Origin: Thermodesulfobacteriota bacterium
Lineage (GTDB): Bacteria; Desulfobacterota; RBG-13-43-22
NCBI GenBank assembly: GCA_040755035.1
Contig: JBFMBU010000313.1
Location: 3,763-67,762 of the forward strand
Direction: 5' to 3'
DNA length: 64,000 nt
Below, one piece after another: positions 3,328-53,598 of the stretch (its first letter is position 1; each line of letters begins with the position of its first letter). Made by a program: the position numbers and the translations under genes. Under the pieces are notes generated by a model. That model did not search any database. It was given only the letters and a program-made list of their open reading frames with translations, and was not told the DNA's origin.

Positions 3328-4695
3328 TCAGATCTTTGGTTTGGGAAATTTTTCCAGGGCTTTTAAGGATTTTTGAATGTCTTCGTCAGGCAATTCGAAA
3401 TCAGCCAGTTTGCCTTCGAAGTAGGCATTGTAAGCCATCATATCCACCAGCCCGTGACCGCTCCAGTTCACCAGGATGGTCTTGGCCTTGCCTTCTTCCT
3501 TGCATTTTTTAGCCTCGGAAATAACCGCGGCTAGGGCATGGTTGGTCTCCGGGGCCGGGATATACCCTTCCGTTCTGGACCAGGTCACGCCGGCGGCAAA
3601 GGTTTCCAGTTGCTGTACGGCTCGGGGTTCAATCAGTTTATCCAGGATCAATTGAGAAACAATAGGAGCCATACCGTGATAGCGCAATCCACCGGCATGG
3701 ATTGGGGCCGGGACGAAGTTATGGCCCAGGCTATGCATGGCCAGCAAGGGGGTCATCTGGACCGTATCCCCGAAATCATAGACAAAGGGACCTTTGGTCA
3801 TGGTCGGGCATGAGGCCGGTTCTACGGCGATAATTTCAATCTTTTTCCCGCCGATCTTGTCCCGGACAAAGGGCAGGGCCATTCCGGCGAAGTTGCTTCC
3901 GCCTCCGGCACAACCGATGACGATGTCCGGATAGTCTCCGGCCTTCTGAAGCTGCTTTTGTGCTTCCAGGCCGATGATGGTCTGATGAAGCAATACGTGG
4001 TTCAAGACACTGCCCAGGGAGTACTTGCTGCCGGGATTGGTTACGGCATCTTCCACGGCTTCACTGATGGCAATCCCCAGGCTGCCCGGGGAGTTGGGGT
4101 CCTGTTCCAATATGGTTCGACCGGCCTTGGTGTCCGGGCTGGGGCTGGGGATACAGGTCGCTCCCCAGGTGTTCATCATCAGCCTGCGGTAAGGTTTCTG
4201 ATCATAACTGATACGGACCATATAGACCTTGATTTCCAGACCGAATAGGGCGCCGGCAAAACTCAGGGCACTGCCCCATTGTCCGGCACCGGTTTCAGTG
4301 GCAATGCGTTTGGTCCCGGAAATTTTATTGTAATAAGCCTGGGGAACGGCCGTATTGGGTTTATGACTGCCGGCCGGACTGACCCCTTCGTTTTTATAAT
4401 AGATCTTGGCCGGGGTTTGTAAAAAGGCTTCCAGGGCATACGCTCGTATTAAAGGAGAAGGACGCCAGATCAGGTATTTTTCCAGGACCGGTTCCGGGAT
4501 ATCGATAAACCTTTGGGGACTGACCTCCTGTTCAATAAGGGGCATGGGAAAGATGGGGGCCAGATCGTCAGGGCCGACCGGCTGACCGGTCCCGGGATGC
4601 AAAGGGGGTTGCATTCCATTGGGCATGTCTGGCAAAATGTTGTACCACTGGCGGGGCATTTCATCTTCGGTCAATAGAATTTTTTTGGGCACCAT
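3328..4695 (-). CDS. trpB2: TrpB-like pyridoxal-phosphate-dependent enzyme (tryptophan synthase beta paralog, TrpB2 type)
   Basis: Full-length match to the TrpB-like family layout: [16 protein letters not shown] lysine motif, [12 protein letters not shown], and a [10 protein letters not shown] glycine loop. Confidence 0.85.
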
Positions 4696-9156: not shown

Positions 9157-10041
9157 TCAGCGTTCAATGTCCGGGGTTCGGCGTTGATCCGGTCGGGGAC
9201 GATAACGGTTGATGAACCATTTCATTTGACGGCAGATCCCGCGGATCAGACGTACTTCGTTGCTGTACAGTCCGATGCGGGAAAAAAAACGACGCAAGCT
9301 CATCATCCACAGGTCAGGATTTTGCTTATCCAGGAAATCCATTAGCTGCAGGACCTCGGACAGGTGGCCGTACATACCCTCCAGTTCGAAAGAAGAGGCC
9401 AATGAATTTCGGATTTCCAATTTCTGATTTCGGGCTGGAAAAATCGGAGAATCGATAGCCGAAAGATCTAAAGTTTCAGGGGTGGGGGGGATGGGTTCTT
9501 TTCCATTCCGAAATCTGAAATCCGCAATCGGCAATGATGGGTCCTGCTGGGCCAGGAGGACCTCATAACAAAGGATCAATACCGCCTGGGCCAGATTAAG
9601 GGAACCGGGCCGGGCTGTGGGAATGGTGACCGTGGCCTGACAAAAGCGTAATTCTTCATTGGTCAATCCTCGGTTTTCCGGACCGAAGAGCAGGGCGATA
9701 CGGTTTTTCCTTCCCAGGGAGGCAATTTTTTGAGCGGCCCGGACCGGATCAATGACTTCCTTGCGCTGCCCCCCCAGGCGGGCTGTAGTTCCCACGACGT
9801 ACTGAAAAGGGGATAGGGCCTCGGCCAGGTCGGAGTGGGTCTCCATAGTCTCCAAAAGTCCCCGGGCCACATGGGTGGAGAGTTTGGTCATCCTTTCCCA
9901 GTCGGTGTCCTCGGGATTGACCAAAAGGATGCGGGAAAACCCCATATTCCAGGCCGCTCGGGCCGTAGCCCCGATGTTTTCGGCAAAACGAGGACGGTGC
10001 AGAACCACCGAGATATGATCGAATCTAACCGGTTCCTTCAT
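9157..10041 (-). CDS. TrmH/SpoU-family RNA 2'-O-methyltransferase (TrmJ-like) with a ~60-aa C-terminal extension
   Basis: SPOUT motifs HISVVLHRPRFAENIGATARAA, LLFGPENRGLTNEE and NLAQAVLILCYE. Confidence 0.8.
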   Translation of the reverse strand: MKEPVRFDHISVVLHRPRFAENIGATARAAWNMGFSRILLVNPEDTDWERMTKLSTHVARGLLETMETHSDLAEALSPFQYVVGTTARLGGQRKEVIDPVRAAQKIASLGRKNRIALLFGPENRGLTNEELRFCQATVTIPTARPGSLNLAQAVLILCYEVLLAQQDPSLPIADFRFRNGKEPIPPTPETLDLSAIDSPIFPARNQKLEIRNSLASSFELEGMYGHLSEVLQLMDFLDKQNPDLWMMSLRRFFSRIGLYSNEVRLIRGICRQMKWFINRYRPRPDQRRTPDIER

Positions 10042-12322: not shown

Positions 12323-13299
12323 TGCTGAATTATATCATCCGCCGTGTCCTTTATGCCGTTCCGATCCTGATCGGGGTCAATATTTTGACCTTCAGTCTCT
12401 TTTTTGTGGTCAACTCAGCGGATGATATGGCCAGGGTCCATCTGGGCACAAAACGGGTCACCCCGGAGGCTGTCCAAAAATGGAAACAAGAAAGGGGATA
12501 TGACCAACCCCTTTTGTATAATCCTCAAGCCACCGGGATAGGCCAAATAACCCGGACCATTTTTTTTCAAAAATCGGTCCGATTATTCGCCTTCCAATTC
12601 GGCCGGGCCGATGACGGCCGGGACATCGCTTACGAGATCCGGAACCGGATGATGCCCAGTCTGGCCATTGCCCTGCCGGTGTTCCTTTTAGGTCTGTTCT
12701 GTTATATTTCGTTCGCTTTGATGATGGCCTTTTTCCGGGCCACTTACCTCGATATCTGGGGGGTGGTCTTCTGCGTAGCTTTGATGTCCATCTCCAGCCT
12801 CTTTTATATCATCGGAGGGCAGTATCTGATCAGTAAGCTTTGGAATCTGGTCCCGATTTCGGGTTATGGAAACGGGATCAGCGCTGTAAAATTCCTGATC
12901 CTGCCGGTGCTGGTAGGGGTGGCCAGCGGCGTAGGGGCCGGTGCCCGCTGGTATCGAACCATCTTTCTGGAGGAAATGAATAAAGACTATGTCCGCACTG
13001 CCCGGGCCAAAGGGCTTTCGGAATGGCGTGTACTCTTTCGGCATGTCCTCCAGAACGCCATGATTCCCATTTTAACCGGGGCGGTGGTGGTCATTCCCGT
13101 TCTTTTTATGGGAAGTCTGATCACCGAATCCTTTTTCGGAATCCCGGGCCTGGGCAGTTATACCATTGATGCCATACATTCTCAAGATTTCGCTGTGGTC
13201 CGGGCCATGGTTTTTCTGGGGTCGGTGCTCTACATCATAGGGCTGATCCTGACCGATATCTCTTATACCCTGGTAGATCCGAGGATCAGGTTGGAATAG
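12322..13299 (+). CDS. ABC transporter permease (DppB/OppB-like)
   Basis: MLNYIIRRVLYAVPILIGV N-terminus and the EEMNKDYVRTARAKGL EAA-loop motif. The ATG overlaps the upstream stop (TGATG). Confidence 0.85.
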   Translation: MLNYIIRRVLYAVPILIGVNILTFSLFFVVNSADDMARVHLGTKRVTPEAVQKWKQERGYDQPLLYNPQATGIGQITRTIFFQKSVRLFAFQFGRADDGRDIAYEIRNRMMPSLAIALPVFLLGLFCYISFALMMAFFRATYLDIWGVVFCVALMSISSLFYIIGGQYLISKLWNLVPISGYGNGISAVKFLILPVLVGVASGVGAGARWYRTIFLEEMNKDYVRTARAKGLSEWRVLFRHVLQNAMIPILTGAVVVIPVLFMGSLITESFFGIPGLGSYTIDAIHSQDFAVVRAMVFLGSVLYIIGLILTDISYTLVDPRIRLE

Positions 13300-14765
13300 T
13301 GGGCTTCAAACCGATCATACTCTGGACGGATGGATTGCTGGCCTTGCTGCTATTGGCAGGGCTGACCTATGGTTGGGCAGTAAAACACCGGGAACACCTG
13401 CGAACACCATGGCAGCGGGTGATCCGGAACCGGAGCGGGTTGGTTTCTATTTTGATTTTGTCCGTTTTCCTGTTTGTCGGTTTAGTGGACAGCCTCCATT
13501 TCCGCCCGGAGTTGAAGTCCTCCAAGGGCCGGGAAAAAGCCTATGCCGTGGAAGTGTTGAGTCTGCTGGACGTTTTGCTGGCCCCCCTGCGGCTGCACAC
13601 GGAAAAGACGTATTCCGCACCCTTGGCCGCCAGGTTATTCTCCAAAGAAACGGTGGAAATGCCGGACGGGCGTCAAACACGGATTTTCCCACGTCTGCTT
13701 TACGGAGGGGCCCATCTTCAAGAGCCGGAAAGGGAAAAAAACGGAGATATCGTGAAAAGGACCTTTTGGGGTCTGTTGACGGCCGTGGTGATTTGGGGAA
13801 TGCTGGCCTTTTTTTTCCTGATACTCCTGGCCCGGCGGAGCCAGGAACGATTATCCGTCAAGGCCAGGAGTCTGTTCCGGGGTAAGGAGGAGGTCCCCTG
13901 GCAGGCCGCTTTGTGGACCCTTTTGGTACTGCTTTTGTTCGGGATTCCTATCGCCTTTCTGAGTATCAAGTACCATGTGTTGGGGACCGATAAAGTGGGG
14001 CAGGATGTTTTATTTCTGGCCCTGAAGAGCATTCGCACCGGATTGATCATCGGCACCCTGACCACACTGGTGATGCTGCCCTTTGCCGTGTTGCTGGGAA
14101 TCATGGCCGGATATTTCCGGGGTTGGGTGGATGATGCCATTCAGTATATATACACCACACTGAACTCCATTCCGGCGGTGCTGTTGATCGCCGCGGCCGT
14201 GCTGATGACCCAGGTCTTTATGGATAGGCATGTCGACTGGTTTGAAACGGTCAGCGCCAGGGCTGATTTTCGTCTCCTGTTTCTTTGCCTCATCCTGGGG
14301 GTGACCAGTTGGACCGGCCTTTGCCGTCTGCTGCGTGGTGAGGCACTGAAATTGCGGGAGATGGAGTATATCCAGGCCGCTCAGGCTTTGGGGGTTTCCG
14401 AATTCCGAATCATCCTCCGGCATATCCTGCCTAATGTCATGCATATTATTTTGATTGCCGTGGTGATGGACTTTTCCGGCCTGGTCTTGGCCGAGGCCGT
14501 ATTGTCCTATGTCGGCGTGGGTGTGGATCCCTCCATGATCAGTTTCGGGACCATGATCAACAGCGCCCGGATGGAAATGGCCAGGGAGCCGATGGTCTGG
14601 TGGTCCCTGGCCGCCGCTTTCGGTTTTATGTTTTTGCTGGTACTCTCCGCCAACCTCTTTTCCGATACGGTGCGGGATGCCTTTGATCCCAGAATTCAAA
14701 CCCGCTCTATCCGTCTCCTCTTCCGGCGGCAAGCCCTTTTAGAAAAAAAAGAGGACCGGCCATGA
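13299..14765 (+). CDS. ABC transporter permease (DppC/OppC-like) with a ~190-aa N-terminal membrane extension
   Basis: GTG start overlapping the upstream stop. Contains the C-terminal BPD_transp_1 core with EAAQALGVSEFRIILRHILPN. Confidence 0.8.
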   Translation: MGFKPIILWTDGLLALLLLAGLTYGWAVKHREHLRTPWQRVIRNRSGLVSILILSVFLFVGLVDSLHFRPELKSSKGREKAYAVEVLSLLDVLLAPLRLHTEKTYSAPLAARLFSKETVEMPDGRQTRIFPRLLYGGAHLQEPEREKNGDIVKRTFWGLLTAVVIWGMLAFFFLILLARRSQERLSVKARSLFRGKEEVPWQAALWTLLVLLLFGIPIAFLSIKYHVLGTDKVGQDVLFLALKSIRTGLIIGTLTTLVMLPFAVLLGIMAGYFRGWVDDAIQYIYTTLNSIPAVLLIAAAVLMTQVFMDRHVDWFETVSARADFRLLFLCLILGVTSWTGLCRLLRGEALKLREMEYIQAAQALGVSEFRIILRHILPNVMHIILIAVVMDFSGLVLAEAVLSYVGVGVDPSMISFGTMINSARMEMAREPMVWWSLAAAFGFMFLLVLSANLFSDTVRDAFDPRIQTRSIRLLFRRQALLEKKEDRP

Positions 14766-16879
14766 AAGCGCCCTTACTGGAGGTTGAGGGTCTTAATACC
14801 CGGCTCTTCACCGCTGATGGGGTGGTCAGGGCCGTAGATGGTCTATCCTTTTCTCTTCAGACCGGGGAAACCTTCGCCCTTCTGGGGGAATCCGGTTGCG
14901 GCAAGACCATGGCCGCTTTGTCTATCATGAGGCTGTTACCGGAAACCGGGATGATCACCGGCGGCCGGGTCCGGTTGAACGGGACCGATCTTTTGCGGCT
15001 GCCGGAGATGGAAATGCGGAAGGTTAGGGGTAGAAGAATCGGCATGATTTTTCAAGAGCCGATGTTGAGTCTGAATCCGGTGGTAACCGTAGGCAGCCAG
15101 GTGACGGAGGTCCTGCTGCATCATTTCTCTTTGTCCAGGGGGGAGGCCGAAGGACGCGCCTTGGAGATGTTGGAAGCCGTTGGCCTTCCTGAAGCACGAC
15201 GACGAAAGGATTATTATCCCTTTCAGTTCTCCGGCGGTATGAAACAAAGGGTCATGGCCGCCATGGCCCTGGCCTGCGGACCGGATCTATTGATTGCCGA
15301 TGAACCGACGACAGCCCTGGATGTGACCATTCAAGCCCAGGTGCTTGATCTGCTCAGAAATTTGCAAGCCCAAAAAGGCATGGCTGTTTTGCTGATCACC
15401 CATGATTTAGGTGTAGTAGCGGAAATGGCCCAGCGGGTGGCGGTCATGTATGCCGGTGAGGTGGTGGAAACCGCGGACCGGGCCCTTTTTTTCACCCGAC
15501 CCTCTCATCCCTATTCTCAGAAGCTGTTTGCATCTATGCCCTTAAGGGATAAGCGGGGGCAGGCCTTGTCGGTTATCCAGGGTAATGTGCCCTCTCTGGC
15601 CCGGGAGTTTCCCGGCTGCCGGTTTGCCGAACGTTGCGAAAAGAGCCGCGGTCAATGTTTTCGGGAACCCCCCCCCTGGATTGAAACCGCTCCCGGTCAG
15701 GGGGTCCGCTGCCATCTTTTCGCTCTTGGAGCAGAGGGAAATAGTTCGGCCTTCAGCGTTCAGTGTTCAGCGTTCGGCGTAAAACCTGAAAACCAAAGGC
15801 TTGCGGGAGAACTTTTTCAAGACGAGCGAGATACGGGATACGAGATACGAGATACACCGATTGAAGGCGGGCACTGTACTGGAGAGCAGGGCCGGGAAGA
15901 ACCGCCTACCCTCCTGCTGGTGGAAGGATTGAAGGTCTACTTTCCTATCCGCAAGGGTTTGCTGAAAAAAACCGTAGGCCAGGTAAAAGCCGTCGACGGG
16001 GTCTCTCTCTCCATCCGAACCGGTCGGACCCTGGCTTTAGTCGGCGAATCCGGTTGTGGAAAGACTACGCTGGGGAAGGGAATTTTGCGGCTTATTCCCA
16101 TGGCCGGAGGGTCGGTATCCTTTGAAGGAAGGGAGTTGGCATTGCTCGGGGCCGAACGGCTGCGGTCTCTGCGGAAGTCATTTCAGATTATTTTTCAGGA
16201 CCCCTATGCCTCATTAAACCCCCGCCTGCGGGTGGTGGAGATCATCGAGGAGGGCATGAGTGCCTTAGGGGTGGGAAAAACCCGGGAAGAACGCCTGTAC
16301 CGGATCGACCGGCTGTTGGAGGAAGTAGGGTTGTCCCCGGAAATCAAATTCCGTTATCCCCACGAATTTTCCGGAGGGCAGCGTCAGCGCATTGCCATAG
16401 CCCGGGCCCTTTCCGTGGAGCCCAAACTGATTGTCTGCGACGAACCGACCAGCGCCCTGGACATCTCCGTCCAGGCTCAAATCCTGAATCTGCTCAAAGA
16501 CCTCCAGGAAAAACACAAACTGGGCTACCTGTTTATCACCCATAATATATCAGTGGTGGAGTATCTGGCCCATGAAGTGGCGGTCATGTACTTAGGCCGG
16601 GTGGTGGAACAAGGTACGGTCGATGAGCTCTTGGATCATCCCGGTCATCCCTACACCCGGGCCCTGCTTTCGGCCGTACCGACCATAGATCCGAAAACCC
16701 GGAGGGAGGTTATACGCCTGGTGGGGGACCTGCCTTCCCCGGCCGCACCTCCTGACGGCTGCTTTTTCCATCCCCGCTGCCCGGAGGTGATGGCCGTCTG
16801 CCGGGATCGTTATCCGGGAAAAAGCATGATAAGCGCAACCCGTTATGTCCACTGTCATCTTTATGGGGAGCGGGAATAA
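14762..16879 (+). CDS. ABC transporter ATP-binding protein, fused double ATPase (DppD-like plus DppF-like domains). The inter-domain linker carries heptamer tandem repeats.
   Basis: Two sets of Walker A (GESGCGKT), signature (FSGGMKQR / FSGGQRQR) and Walker B motifs, plus oligopeptide C-terminal domains. The ATGA start overlaps the upstream gene. Confidence 0.85.
15745..15779 (+). repeat. Heptanucleotide tandem array, 5 units (TTCGGCC TTCAGCG TTCAGTG TTCAGCG TTCGGCG), in frame inside the ATPase linker
   Basis: Direct reading. It is the reverse complement of the CGCCGAA units at 52931-52958. Confidence 0.85.
15827..15854 (+). repeat. Heptanucleotide tandem array CGAGATA/CGGGATA, 4 units, inside the ATPase linker
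   Basis: Direct reading. An inverted copy array lies at 16882-16916. Confidence 0.85.
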
Positions 16880-16881
16880 TT

Positions 16882-16916
16882 TCTCGTATCTCGTATCTCG
16901 TTGCTCGTATCTCGTC
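16882..16916 (+). repeat. Heptanucleotide tandem array TCTCGTA, 5 units (reverse complement of CGAGATA), 3 nt after the ATPase stop codon
   Basis: Direct reading. It forms a long-range inverted repeat with 15827-15854, ~1.05 kb away. Confidence 0.85.
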
Positions 16917-17003
16917 TAAACTCTCTTCTGATGATCTCAAAAAAAGTTAAAATCACTAAGTGGTCATTTCGACTGGAAGGAGAAATCTTGAAATCTCGCA
17001 TCC

Positions 17004-17043
17004 CTGAACCCTTGAATCCTCGAATCCTTGGACCCTTTTGACC
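17004..17043 (+). repeat. Octanucleotide tandem array, 5 degenerate units (consensus TTGAATCC)
   Basis: ctgaaccc ttgaatcc tcgaatcc ttggaccc ttttgacc, in the convergent intergenic region. Confidence 0.6.
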
Positions 17044-42582: not shown

Positions 42583-42614
42583 AGAAATCCATCCGGAGCA
42601 AAGACCAAGATGAT

Positions 42615-42669
42615 CAGTACAGAATCAGTACAGAATCAGTACAAAATCAGTACAAAATCAGGACAGAAT
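42615..42669. repeat. 11-bp tandem array, 5 units (CAGTACAGAAT x2, CAGTACAAAAT x2, CAGGACAGAAT), directly 3' of the aconitase-family gene
   Basis: Direct reading. Confidence 0.85.
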
Positions 42670-44618
42670 CAACCCCGTGCCTTTTGATTTCTCTTAAGGT
42701 AAGACAGTAGACCACCGGCCAGGAAAATTTCCATTTTTTCCGTGGGGACCAAGGCTTTTAAAAGGAAATTTTTCTTTTGGGTCAGGTTAAAGGCCTGGAT
42801 CTCTTTTCCCTGTTTGAGGGCTTTCAAGACCTGATGAAACTCCAACCAATCGTCTTGCTGCAGGGATAAATAATCCTTCGGTTCTAAAAAAACCAGAGGA
42901 AGGATCCCGTAATTGATCAGATTACTTAGATGGATTCTGGCAAAAGACTTGGCTACCACAGCACGGATGCCTAAAAACATAGGGGCCAGGACCGCATGTT
43001 CTCTTGAAGAACCCTGTCCATAATTTTCACCTCCGATAATGACGCCCCCCTGGGCCTGAGCGGCCCTTTCGGTAAAAGTTGGGTCCAGACGGGAGAAGGT
43101 AAAACGGGAGATGGCCGGGATGTTTGATCGAAACGGCAGAACCTCGGATCCTCCAGGCAGGATGTCGTCGGTAGAGATGTGGTCACCGGTTTTAATCAAG
43201 ACCCGGGCCTGGAAGGAAGCCGATAAAGGTTTACTAAGCGGGAGGGGCTTGATATTCGGCCCGCGGACAATTTTTATCCCTTGCGGATTGGGGGTGGGGG
43301 GGTGAAGCAGAGAGGCGGACTGGCTTCGGGGAGGGAGATTGGAAACCTTTGGCAGGGAAATTTTTTCCTTAAAAGGGTCGACCACTTCTCCCTTGAGGGC
43401 GATTAAAGCGGCGGTCAGCGGATTACATAAATAAACCCGGGCGGAGAGGGTTCCGCTCCGACCCCTGAAGTTTCGATTATAGGTCCTGAAGGAAATTCCA
43501 TTTTCCGGAGGCGCTCCCCCCATACCAATGCAGGGACCACATGCGGATTCCAGGAGACGGGCGCCGGAAGCCAGGAGTGCCCCGAGATCCCCTTTTTCAG
43601 CCAGGGCCTTCATGACTTCTCTGGAACCGGGATTGATTAAAAGGCTTAGGCCGGGGTGGATGGGTTTCCCGGCCAGGAGGGTGGCTACGGACTTCAGAGA
43701 AGCATAGGAGGAATTGGAACAACTTCCGATACAGACCTGGTGGACCTTCAATCCGATAATCTTTTTCAGTGGTACAATATTATCCGGGCTGAAAGGACAG
43801 GCGACCAACGGTTCCAGTTGATCGAGATTTATTTCTAAATGATCCTCATAGACCGCTTCCGGGTCAGGAGACAGCTTTATCCAATCTCTCGCCCGTCCTT
43901 GGGTCTCTAAAAAGGACCGGGTTATTTCATCGCTGGGGAACAGGGAGGTCGTGGCCCCCAGTTCAGCCCCCAGGTTACAAATAGTAGCCCTTTCGGTGGC
44001 CGAAAGGGTCTTAAGGGCCGGGCCTTGAAACTCATGTACCCATCCCACTCCTCCACGAACCGTCAGGCGACGGAGCAGTTCCAAAGCCACGTCCATGGCC
44101 GTAACCCAGGGTCTCTTCAGATGGCCGATAAGCCGAATACGCCTTACCTTGGGTCGAACAAGAAAATAGGGGTAACCGGCCATAGCCGCGGCGATGTCCA
44201 ATCCCCCGCAGCCCATAGCCAGCATGCCCAGACCGCCGGCGGTAGGGGTATGGCTGTCCGATCCCAATAGGACTTGACCTGGTCTGGCAAACCGTTCCAG
44301 ATGTACCTGATGGCAGATGCCGTTTCCGGCCGGGGAGAAGTAGGCCCCAAAGCGGGCGGCCGAGCTTTGCAGATAGAGATGATCATCCGGATTGCGGGAA
44401 TCCGCCTGAAGCGTGTTGTGGTCTACATAGGAAACCGCCAGGGGGACCTGTATGCGTTTTTTTTTGATGGCTTCAAACTGCAGATAGACCATGGTCCCGG
44501 TGGCGTCCTGAGTCAAGACCTGGTCTATTTTTAGGGGAATGGTTTCCCCGTTTGTTTTCTGGCCTCTGCTCACATGGTGATTGACAATTTTTTGAAAAAG
44601 CGTCTCCTGCATAACCAC
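42669..44618 (-). CDS. Aconitase-family hydro-lyase with fused large (LeuC-like) and swivel (LeuD-like) domains
   Basis: GSDSHT, the Cys ligand region GSCSNSS (one of the conserved Fe-S cluster ligands), and a C-terminal swivel domain. 649 aa. Confidence 0.7.
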   Translation of the reverse strand: MVMQETLFQKIVNHHVSRGQKTNGETIPLKIDQVLTQDATGTMVYLQFEAIKKKRIQVPLAVSYVDHNTLQADSRNPDDHLYLQSSAARFGAYFSPAGNGICHQVHLERFARPGQVLLGSDSHTPTAGGLGMLAMGCGGLDIAAAMAGYPYFLVRPKVRRIRLIGHLKRPWVTAMDVALELLRRLTVRGGVGWVHEFQGPALKTLSATERATICNLGAELGATTSLFPSDEITRSFLETQGRARDWIKLSPDPEAVYEDHLEINLDQLEPLVACPFSPDNIVPLKKIIGLKVHQVCIGSCSNSSYASLKSVATLLAGKPIHPGLSLLINPGSREVMKALAEKGDLGALLASGARLLESACGPCIGMGGAPPENGISFRTYNRNFRGRSGTLSARVYLCNPLTAALIALKGEVVDPFKEKISLPKVSNLPPRSQSASLLHPPTPNPQGIKIVRGPNIKPLPLSKPLSASFQARVLIKTGDHISTDDILPGGSEVLPFRSNIPAISRFTFSRLDPTFTERAAQAQGGVIIGGENYGQGSSREHAVLAPMFLGIRAVVAKSFARIHLSNLINYGILPLVFLEPKDYLSLQQDDWLEFHQVLKALKQGKEIQAFNLTQKKNFLLKALVPTEKMEIFLAGGLLSYLKRNQKARG

Positions 44619-52852: not shown

Positions 52853-53598
52853 AAAACCAGATGATAGGCATAGCTTTTATAGGCGATGCCTGTAAAACCC
52901 CTCTAAAAATAGAAGAGGGTTATCTCTTATCGCCGAACGCCGAACGCCGAAGGCCGAACGTTTTTTTAGGGAAGGCCCCCGGTTTCACCCTGCTGGAATT
53001 GCTGATTTCCATAACCATTGTCGGGGTGCTGCTGTTTATCCTCATGTCTGTTTTGCGGCTGGGTTATCGGTCGGTGGAGGCCGGAGAAAAAAAGATTGAA
53101 TCCCTGGAACGCTTCCGGGCCTCTTTTAACCTGATTGAGGCCCAGATCCAGTCCGAGATCCCCTTGTCCTTTTTGGAAAACGGAGAGAGAAAATACTATT
53201 TTAAAGGGCAATCCGGGTTACTGGAGTTTTCTACCAACCATTCCCTTTGGGAAGGGGAGAGCGGTTTTGTGCTGGTCTCCTACCGGGTGGAGGAGGAGGG
53301 GCAGGGGAAATGGTCCTTGTGGGCCGCGGAAGGCAAAATAGGGCAATCACCCTTGAGGGAGGTAAAGCTTCTGGGGGCTTTTGACAAGATCTCCTTTTCC
53401 TATTTCTATCAGGACCCGACCGAAGAAAGCGGGCAATGGCTGGAGGAATGGACGGAGACGGCTTTTCGGCCGAAAAAGATCAAACTGGATTTGGTTGTTG
53501 ACGGTAAAGAGCTCTCCATCCTATCGCCCTTAAAAAGCCAGGGGGGCCTGACCGGACTCCAGACCAGGCCGATTTCCAGAAGCTCAAGCGGGGGATGA
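52849..53598 (+). CDS. gspJ: Pseudopilin (GspJ-like) with an unusually long ~45-aa leader that contains a heptamer repeat array
   Basis: ...GKAPG|FTLLELLISITIVGVLL. The only in-frame ATGs (52849, 52861) lie upstream of the CGCCGAA array. The ATGA start overlaps gspI. Confidence 0.6.
   Translation: MKNQMIGIAFIGDACKTPLKIEEGYLLSPNAERRRPNVFLGKAPGFTLLELLISITIVGVLLFILMSVLRLGYRSVEAGEKKIESLERFRASFNLIEAQIQSEIPLSFLENGERKYYFKGQSGLLEFSTNHSLWEGESGFVLVSYRVEEEGQGKWSLWAAEGKIGQSPLREVKLLGAFDKISFSYFYQDPTEESGQWLEEWTETAFRPKKIKLDLVVDGKELSILSPLKSQGGLTGLQTRPISRSSSGG
52931..52958 (+). repeat. Heptanucleotide tandem array CGCCGAA x3 plus GGCCGAA, followed by a T7 homopolymer, inside the pseudopilin leader coding region
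   Basis: Direct reading. It is the same heptamer family, in reverse complement, as 15745-15779. Confidence 0.85.

Follow-up and report, generated by a model that had tools for sequence, protein, structure and literature searches.

We analyzed a stretch of 64,000 nucleotides from a Thermodesulfobacteriota bacterium (GTDB lineage Bacteria; Desulfobacterota; RBG-13-43-22), which corresponds to positions 3,763 to 67,762 of the forward strand of contig JBFMBU010000313.1 in GenBank assembly GCA_040755035.1 and is called the window hereafter. The subject of this report is a set of tandem arrays with 7-nt units, found inside and directly behind a gene for a fused double ATP-binding cassette (ABC) ATPase. 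This gene (14762–16879, + strand), assigned on the basis of its open reading frame (ORF) and of Pfam and NCBIfam matches, encodes a protein of 705 aa of the Opp/Dpp-type peptide/nickel importer class, in which a DppD/OppD-like half is followed by a DppF/OppF-like half. A substrate-binding protein gene and two permease genes precede it. Pfam detects ABC_tran twice and oligo_HPY twice in the protein, the NCBIfam subfamily model NF008453 is matched with 640 bits (cutoff, 408), and the Walker A, signature and Walker B regions of both halves are invariant columns in the alignment. One protein from a metagenome-assembled genome (MAG) in NCBI, labelled Thermodesulfobacteriota, is 100% identical to it.

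The original prediction on this DNA took the two ATPases to be separate genes in most Dpp/Opp systems, but the fused form is common; all of the 8000 scored candidates had E-values of 1e-50 or lower, and the 120 homologues listed were 673–721 aa in length. The arrangement is like that of GsiA and YejF of Escherichia coli, where two ABC domains, each followed by oligo_HPY, are present on one polypeptide, and NCBIfam models match both halves of the window protein. It differs from these proteins in scores below the respective equivalog cutoffs (585 versus 1077 and 580 versus 834) and in a much longer linker between the halves, which is due to the repeat arrays described below.

Heptamer arrays and the inter-domain linker

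Three arrays with a period of 7 nt were confirmed at this locus by direct reading and by Tandem Repeats Finder (TRF), at the places given by the original prediction and all written here on the + strand. Array A, (TTCRGYS)x5 at 15745–15779, and array B, (CGAGATA)x4 at 15827–15854, are in frame within the ATPase ORF at about aa 320–384, between the first oligo_HPY region and the second ABC domain. Array C, (TCTCGTA)x5 at 16882–16916, is in the spacer between convergent genes and begins 3 nt downstream of the TAA stop codon of the ATPase ORF (16877–16879). The units of array A are TTCGGCC, TTCAGCG, TTCAGTG, TTCAGCG, and TTCGGCG, the last base of unit 1 being C and not G, and TRF reports the array at 15744–15780 with period 7, 5.3 copies and 80% matches. 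Those of array B are CGAGATA, CGGGATA, CGAGATA, and CGAGATA (4.1 copies, 90% matches), and those of array C are TCTCGTA, TCTCGTA, TCTCGTT, GCTCGTA, and TCTCGTC (4.9 copies, 85% matches). With four to five units and one to five variant bases in each, these arrays are short and imperfect. Directly before array A, at 15731–15744 (+ strand), one intact unit GCAGAGG (15731–15737) and one degenerate unit GAAATAG are left of a further array of GCAGAGG/GCAAAGG type, which was recognized from the sequence and from the comparison with orthologues.

The unit TCTCGTA of array C is the reverse complement of a rotation of the array B unit CGAGATA. An inverted-repeat search placed the two arms at 15827–15855 and 16886–16914; they are 29 nt long, 90% complementary and 1030 nt apart, so the inverted relationship that had been noted for the second and third arrays holds. 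Period-7 arrays of at least three copies are far above the chance level in the window, since these 64 kb, the part of the genome examined, contain five and 40 dinucleotide-preserving shuffles gave 0.05 on average; other periods give at most one array each. The unit types CGAGATA, TTCGGCG, and GGATTTC are each found by TRF at two places in the window.

A change of one or two units in array A or B, in either direction, gives calculated products of 337–394 aa, and a change of three units stays in frame. This agrees with the earlier statement that gain or loss of a single unit would shift the frame in the linker and cut the protein after its first ATPase half. Read on the coding strand, the array A unit has no stop codon in any frame; this does not hold for the reverse strand, which gives R*TLNAE.

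The linker that contains arrays A and B extends over about aa 320–385 (15719–15916, + strand), as delimited by AlphaFold disorder and by a hypervariable block of the alignment. Residues 320–379 have a predicted local distance difference test (pLDDT) score below 50, with means of 21–34 over blocks of ten residues, and no secondary structure. Measured from a conserved Cys to a conserved Leu-Leu, the linker spans 69 aa in the window and 65 and 77 aa in its two closest relatives; among about 58 more distant homologues, which lack a period-7 signal, it is mostly 29–42 aa. The linker of the window protein, predicted to be disordered, thus owes its roughly doubled length to the heptamer arrays within it, and these represent a clade-specific lengthening of an unconstrained segment. 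The peptides RDTRYEI and AEGRGQR in the protein alignment are translated heptamer arrays.

Period-7 linker arrays were found in only two of about 60 more distant homologues, L123 and L124. The linker of L123 carries an unrelated (CCTCATC)4.6 array, translated as PHPSSLI, and a 7-aa periodicity of PSSLVPH type in two Burkholderiales-like homologues (P0035 and P0048) corresponds to (CCTCATC)n as in the L123 DNA. Since homologues in other hosts bear the linker repeats of those hosts, the linker behaves like intergenic DNA. G-rich, palindrome-like linker motifs, translated as SPLP..GERG or PSP.GRG.GVR, are present in P0039, P0045, P0068, P0111, P0118, and L124. Repeats also flank the genes of the two array-bearing homologues, in direct orientation in both cases; GAATCAC arrays lie before the start and after the stop in L123, and the G-rich linker motif recurs across the stop codon in L124.

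Arrays in orthologues and related strains

The DNA of five orthologues was available for comparison: L001 (87% aa identity to the window protein outside the linker), L003 (79%), and L203, L204, and L205 (72–74%). L001 and L002 are identical over 2764 nt and hence uninformative as independent strains, and the cluster of the window ATPase itself (P0001) has one database member. Heptamer arrays are present in the linker of all five orthologues in a common order, with differing unit counts and an intact reading frame. The first array, of GCAGAGG/GCAAAGG/GGCGAGA type, is (GCAGAGG)x4.1 in L001 and (GCAAAGG)x4.1 in L203, with 4.3 copies in L204 and 7.4 in L205; L003 has at this position a GCAAAGG-type run with several degenerate units. 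The TTCAGNG array (array A) is restricted to the window and L001, where it is read as GAGTTCA x3.7. The ACGAGAT array (array B) has 3.9 copies in L001, 4.7 in L003 and 3.4 in L203, and its position is occupied by the variant AGGGACG/ACGAGAG in L204 and by a remnant in L205. Because the arrays are at orthologous positions in relatives, they are old and are not the footprint of a fresh insertion.

When the linker DNA of four orthologues is aligned, no stretch of invariant columns is longer than CGAGATACGRGATACGAG in array B, and identity to the window at fourfold-degenerate sites is only 72%, 55%, and 42% in the orthologue comparisons (55% for L003). Behind the gene, L003 has a counterpart of array C, CTCGTAT x5.6; the closest relative, L001, retains about two units of a decayed one. 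No counterpart was found after the stop codon in L203, L204, L205 or the strain cluster described next; the downstream genes of L203, L204, and L205 are different ones.

Changes on the strain level were followed in the P0025 cluster, a related species labelled Thermodesulfobacteriota (at least 90% identity), for which five loci with 95–98% identity in DNA were compared. Between fixed anchors, the linker of L222 is 77 nt (full-length protein, 674 aa), and this locus serves as the reference for the others. L225 has 98 nt (+21; full length, 681 aa). The other three genes are called as split: L224 with 99 nt (+21 and +1; 350 + 316 aa), L221 with 123 nt (+45 and +1, the latter being a run of eight G instead of seven; 358 + 316 aa), and L223 with 79 nt (two 1-nt insertions; 362 + 316 aa). 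With the 1-nt differences set aside, the linker lengths are 77, 98, 98, and 122 nt, and the arrays differ by 0, 3, 3, and about 6 units, with the frame kept in each case. The same loci have an intergenic (CTTGAAC)n array between dppB and dppC (L221–L225, about 986–1030), which differs by −7 and +6 nt between the strains.

DNA alignment attributes each of the three split calls to 1-nt differences. The assemblies concerned (ENA ERZ25039489, ERZ25039463, and ERZ25039517 for L221, L223, and L224), in which sequences are named in the form 'contig_N', also have xseA broken into 240 + 176 aa and a dppB of 282 aa, and they contain further ATPase alleles with frameshifted C-terminal ends (P0129 and P0135). 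Because the differences are of 1 nt and other genes are broken in the same assemblies, the frameshifts are probably consensus errors of long-read sequencing, and the split alleles were ruled out as evidence of a switch. The arrays are dynamic, and only frame-keeping variants were seen in coding DNA. The original prediction had proposed counting units across related strains: the numbers do vary, as it anticipated, but only in the frame-keeping steps of +21 and +45 nt.

Heptamer arrays as a dispersed class

Species-representative genomes from many phyla contained (ACGAGAT)3 in more than 119 stretches, and genomes of Smithella and Smithellaceae have CGAGATA/TCGTATC arrays of up to 9.6 copies at several loci each. 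In a tblastn search, none of the (ACGAGAT)3 matches listed contained the orthologous ATPase. In 857 kb around these matches there were 309 period-7 arrays with 121 distinct units, compared with 33 arrays of period 6 and 50 of period 8. CGAGATA was considered as a universally favoured unit and rejected, since viral contigs gave 4 matches for (ACGAGAT)3 and 3 and 8 matches for two permuted control units. As the permuted units are about equally frequent there, the more than 119 genome matches reflect a general abundance of heptamer arrays. The original prediction had considered the case of arrays confined to this one locus; the arrays are instead dispersed across the window, the lineage and many phyla, and heptamer arrays are abundant in the Thermodesulfobacteriota lineage of the window.

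The relative orientation of array pairs with the same unit was examined in the other genomes. At distances of up to 110 nt, 14 pairs were inverted and 2 direct, and these close pairs are therefore hairpins. Beyond 500 nt, 22 pairs were direct and 9 inverted; since such long-range pairs are mostly direct, the inverted pair about 1 kb apart at the ATPase gene is not a recognizable structural class.

Two further places in the window illustrate the class. On the − strand at 9405–9535, TRF detects an inverted pair, (NGATTTC)x4 and (GAAATCN)x4 with a loop of about 75 nt, in frame in the linker of a TrmJ-like methyltransferase (ORF 9157–10041; Pfam SpoU domain at aa 9–158). In comparison with solved TrmJ structures, the pair adds about 32 residues between the SPOUT and C-terminal domains. 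As a stable RNA hairpin it was rejected, the z-score of its fold being only −1.1. On the + strand at 52931–52960, TRF and the sequence give a (CGCCGAA)x4.3 array, whose unit is the reverse complement of that of array A, upstream of a pseudopilin gene of the type II secretion system (T2SS; Pfam matches N_methyl and T2SSJ). A small hairpin stands before this array and a T-run after it; it is located just upstream of the N-terminal methylation motif and 37 kb from the ATPase linker. The sites of the arrays, namely the disordered ATPase linker, the spacer of convergent genes, the TrmJ-like linker and the region upstream of the pseudopilin gene, are all under weak constraint.

Such arrays have parallels in other bacteria. 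According to the summary given in PMC4679880, heptamers were the most abundant class of long simple sequence repeats (SSR) in bacteria (Mrazek et al., 2007). GGGAATC arrays of Xanthomonas form 70–75 inverted pairs per genome and keep their position while differing in length between species (Rehm et al., 2015, PMC4692102), and TAACTGA repeats of marine Beggiatoaceae are mostly intergenic, a few being found in ORFs at protein ends or between modules (MacGregor, 2015, PMC4679880). Like the STRRs of Calothrix and Nostoc and the Xanthomonas arrays, the arrays studied here are 7-nt tandem units in few to about ten copies, many per genome, with an excess of period 7, lineage-favoured units at many loci and frequent convergent inverted pairs. 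As in Xanthomonas, the position is kept in relatives and the copy number varies (five orthologues; 0, 3, and about 6 units among P0025 strains). The cyanobacterial and Xanthomonas arrays have been described mainly from intergenic DNA, whereas here two arrays, and three in relatives, are translated in an inter-domain linker; unlike in that comparison set, the units here do not form G-quadruplexes. The Beggiatoaceae repeats share with the window direct heptamers whose orientation is limited by stop codons (here TTCAGCG). They differ in that the genome described has one dominant unit, concentrated just upstream of starts, for which a regulatory role has been proposed, while several different units without start-codon association are present here.

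Another parallel is the Rickettsia palindromic elements, reportedly described by Ogata and co-workers in 2000 as dispersed elements of 100–150 bp with conserved sequence, lying in frame in protein-coding genes. The resemblance is in selfish or neutral repeats tolerated in frame in housekeeping proteins without disturbance of the fold, and the TrmJ-like insert of about 130 nt is comparable in this respect; the difference is that the arrays here are tandem repeats of simple 7-nt units, which vary, and share no conserved core. Our literature searches found no report on heptamer arrays in Syntrophales or in Desulfobacterota/Thermodesulfobacteriota. The arrays of the window fit the known heptamer-SSR kind, to which they add translated linker arrays and a host lineage for which no such report was found.

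Our preferred explanation, which we regard as quite probable, is that the three arrays are ordinary, dispersed heptamer repeats typical of the lineage, generated by slippage, tolerated in unconstrained DNA and filtered for reading frame. Heptamer arrays would arise and change their length by replication slippage in 7-nt steps, and would persist only in unconstrained sequence such as intergenic spacers and disordered inter-domain linkers; in the fused ATPase they would have roughly doubled the linker. They would survive there because their units contain no stop codon in any of the three coding-strand frames, because the encoded peptide is hydrophilic and unstructured, and because selection removes length changes that are not a multiple of 3 nt, so that the surviving changes would in practice be steps of three units (21 nt). 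Array C would be a locally recurring unit in the next permissive site, the spacer of the convergent genes, and its inverted orientation relative to array B would be incidental. The arrays would then have no regulatory role.

Some points weigh against this explanation. The CGAGATA unit is identical in four lineages in spite of 42–72% identity at fourfold-degenerate sites, and in both the window and L003 the complementary unit is preserved in the non-coding array C. Under neutral drift alone, a change of the consensus unit would be expected, which suggests that selection, biased slippage or array conversion maintains it. Protein-level selection on the peptide RDTRYE is unlikely as the sole cause of this conservation, because non-coding array C keeps the complementary unit in two lineages. 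In addition, slippage as the generating mechanism is taken over from the literature by analogy, and rare frameshifted subpopulations in the species of the window itself are possible.

The original prediction proposed two other readings, a repeat-mediated switch and an inverting, excising or inserted segment. In the former, slipped-strand mispairing of single 7-nt units would toggle the product between the double ATPase and a truncated single one, so that the importer is off or altered in part of the population. Such phase variation by SSR is known from Haemophilus, Neisseria, and Moraxella, whose contingency loci include hmw genes with 7-bp repeats upstream of them. The locus resembles these in that a unit that is not a multiple of three stands within an ORF and a single-unit change shifts the frame, that arrays of this kind differ in length between strains, and that split calls of about 350–362 + 316 aa exist in one related species cluster. 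We nevertheless consider a switch very unlikely. Known contingency tracts are longer and near-perfect, whereas only four to five imperfect units are present here, and similar unit numbers (3.4–4.7) are retained in four orthologues at 73–87% aa identity. The strain differences in the linker are all in frame once 1-nt differences are set aside, and the split calls trace back to such differences (e.g., 8 G versus 7) in assemblies that also break xseA and dppB. Inspection of the window sequence showed neither a ribosome-binding site nor a start codon that the second half could use, and the product is a cytoplasmic housekeeping transporter ATPase, neither a surface protein nor a restriction-modification gene product. 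The latter reading, in which the CGAGATA arrays serve as recombination sites of an invertible or excisable segment or are the remains of terminal repeats of a mobile element, appears to us the least credible of all, although the complementary arms described above would suit it and the TrmJ-like inverted pair does resemble a compact palindromic insertion. The arms enclose the second half of the ATPase, which is conserved and essential and has the forward orientation in every orthologue and relative examined. No recombinase or transposase gene was found within about 10 kb among neighbouring ORFs classified by NCBIfam and Pfam matches, long-range pairs are mostly direct in other genomes, and the linker array occurs without a downstream array in several lineages, array C having no counterpart in three relatives and only a decayed one in the closest. 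As for hallmarks of miniature inverted-repeat transposable elements or insertion sequences, neither terminal inverted repeats nor a target-site duplication was seen at the arrays, which are not absent from orthologues and belong to the lineage-wide heptamer family. Neither an on/off switch nor an invertible segment at the ATPase gene is supported; nothing found at the locus shows either.

A different possibility is that arrays B and C are kept in step on the RNA level. The linker array at 15820–15852 would pair with 16882–16917 in a long-range mRNA helix of about 30 bp, looping out the coding region of the second half, and the duplex could be a substrate of RNase III or a stabilizer of the 3′ end, setting the stability of the transcript or the output of the second half. 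The predicted duplex has −54.8 kcal/mol in the window against −20.2 (SD 4.3) with shuffled partners, the corresponding values in L003 are −57.6 and −27.0 (SD 4.7), and the minimum-free-energy structure predicted for 15800–16930 contains the helix. In addition, both arrays hold the common unit in the window and L003 at 55% identity of fourfold-degenerate sites. Against this, the decayed downstream array of L001 gives a duplex of −27.4 kcal/mol, within 2 SD of shuffles; L203, L204, L205, and the P0025 cluster have linker arrays with no complementary array past the stop; and the flanking repeats of L123 and L124, as well as most of the array pairs in other genomes that have a common unit and are separated by more than 500 nt, are in direct orientation. 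Translating ribosomes would also hold the linker arm unwound, and the region has no match to an Rfam family, the search of the whole window returning a tRNA only. A terminator scan found no canonical terminator after the ATPase stop codon. We therefore judge it improbable that a helix controlling processing (e.g., by RNase III) or second-half stability keeps the two arrays in step, and equally doubtful, more broadly, that the arrays of the lineage are maintained at the nucleotide level by selection or conversion and not by neutral slippage. If true, maintenance at the nucleotide level would explain an unchanged CGAGATA unit where synonymous sites are near saturation.

With the arrays taken as tolerated, lineage-typical repeats, the locus provides a worked example of genome-typical repeats that colonize the disordered linker of a fused protein and are then filtered by selection, coding arrays stepping by +21 or +45 nt and intergenic spacer arrays by about one 7-nt unit. 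For annotation, low-complexity linker peptides such as RDTRYEI and AEGRGQR can be read as translated repeats, and where a gene of a long-read MAG is called as split at such a site, a 1-nt consensus error should be assumed as the probable cause. The conservation of the unit beyond that of synonymous sites bears on what generates and maintains heptamer arrays in bacteria.

Neighbouring genes and other repeats

The neighbourhood of the ATPase gene is one of housekeeping genes and contains fpg, trmJ, transporter genes, two enoyl-CoA hydratase genes, xseA, dxs, a gene for an FtsJ-like methyltransferase and an aminotransferase gene. The DppC/OppC-like permease encoded at 13299–14765 has 488 aa, and the match to the permease model starts only at about residue 225; this long form is common to the orthologues, with 489–496 aa in L204, L205, and L221–L225.

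Behind array C, where the ATPase and enoyl-CoA hydratase genes converge, the spacer contains a degenerate 8/24-nt tandem array (16987–17037, + strand) composed of CTTGAAWC, CTTGAATC and CCTGAACC, for which TRF gives periods of 8, 16, and 24. A similar array, the heptamer (CTTGAAC)n, lies between dppB and dppC in the P0025 cluster. In L204, the dppB-dppC spacer (1356–1525) consists nearly entirely of heptamers, namely (ATAGCTC)x4.6, about seven units of GCAAAGG/GCAAAAT and (GCTATCA)x9.4; the outer arrays are inverted and thus make a hairpin whose loop is itself an array.

Tandem repeats with other periods were also observed in the window. An 11-nt array, ATCAGTACAGA x5.4 with 93% matches (42613–42671), abuts the 3′ end of a minus-strand ORF (42669–44618). 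Repeats of 30/90 nt at 1443–1633 are inside a minus-strand ORF of 400 aa (1292–2494), the product of which is probably a repetitive coiled-coil or low-complexity protein.

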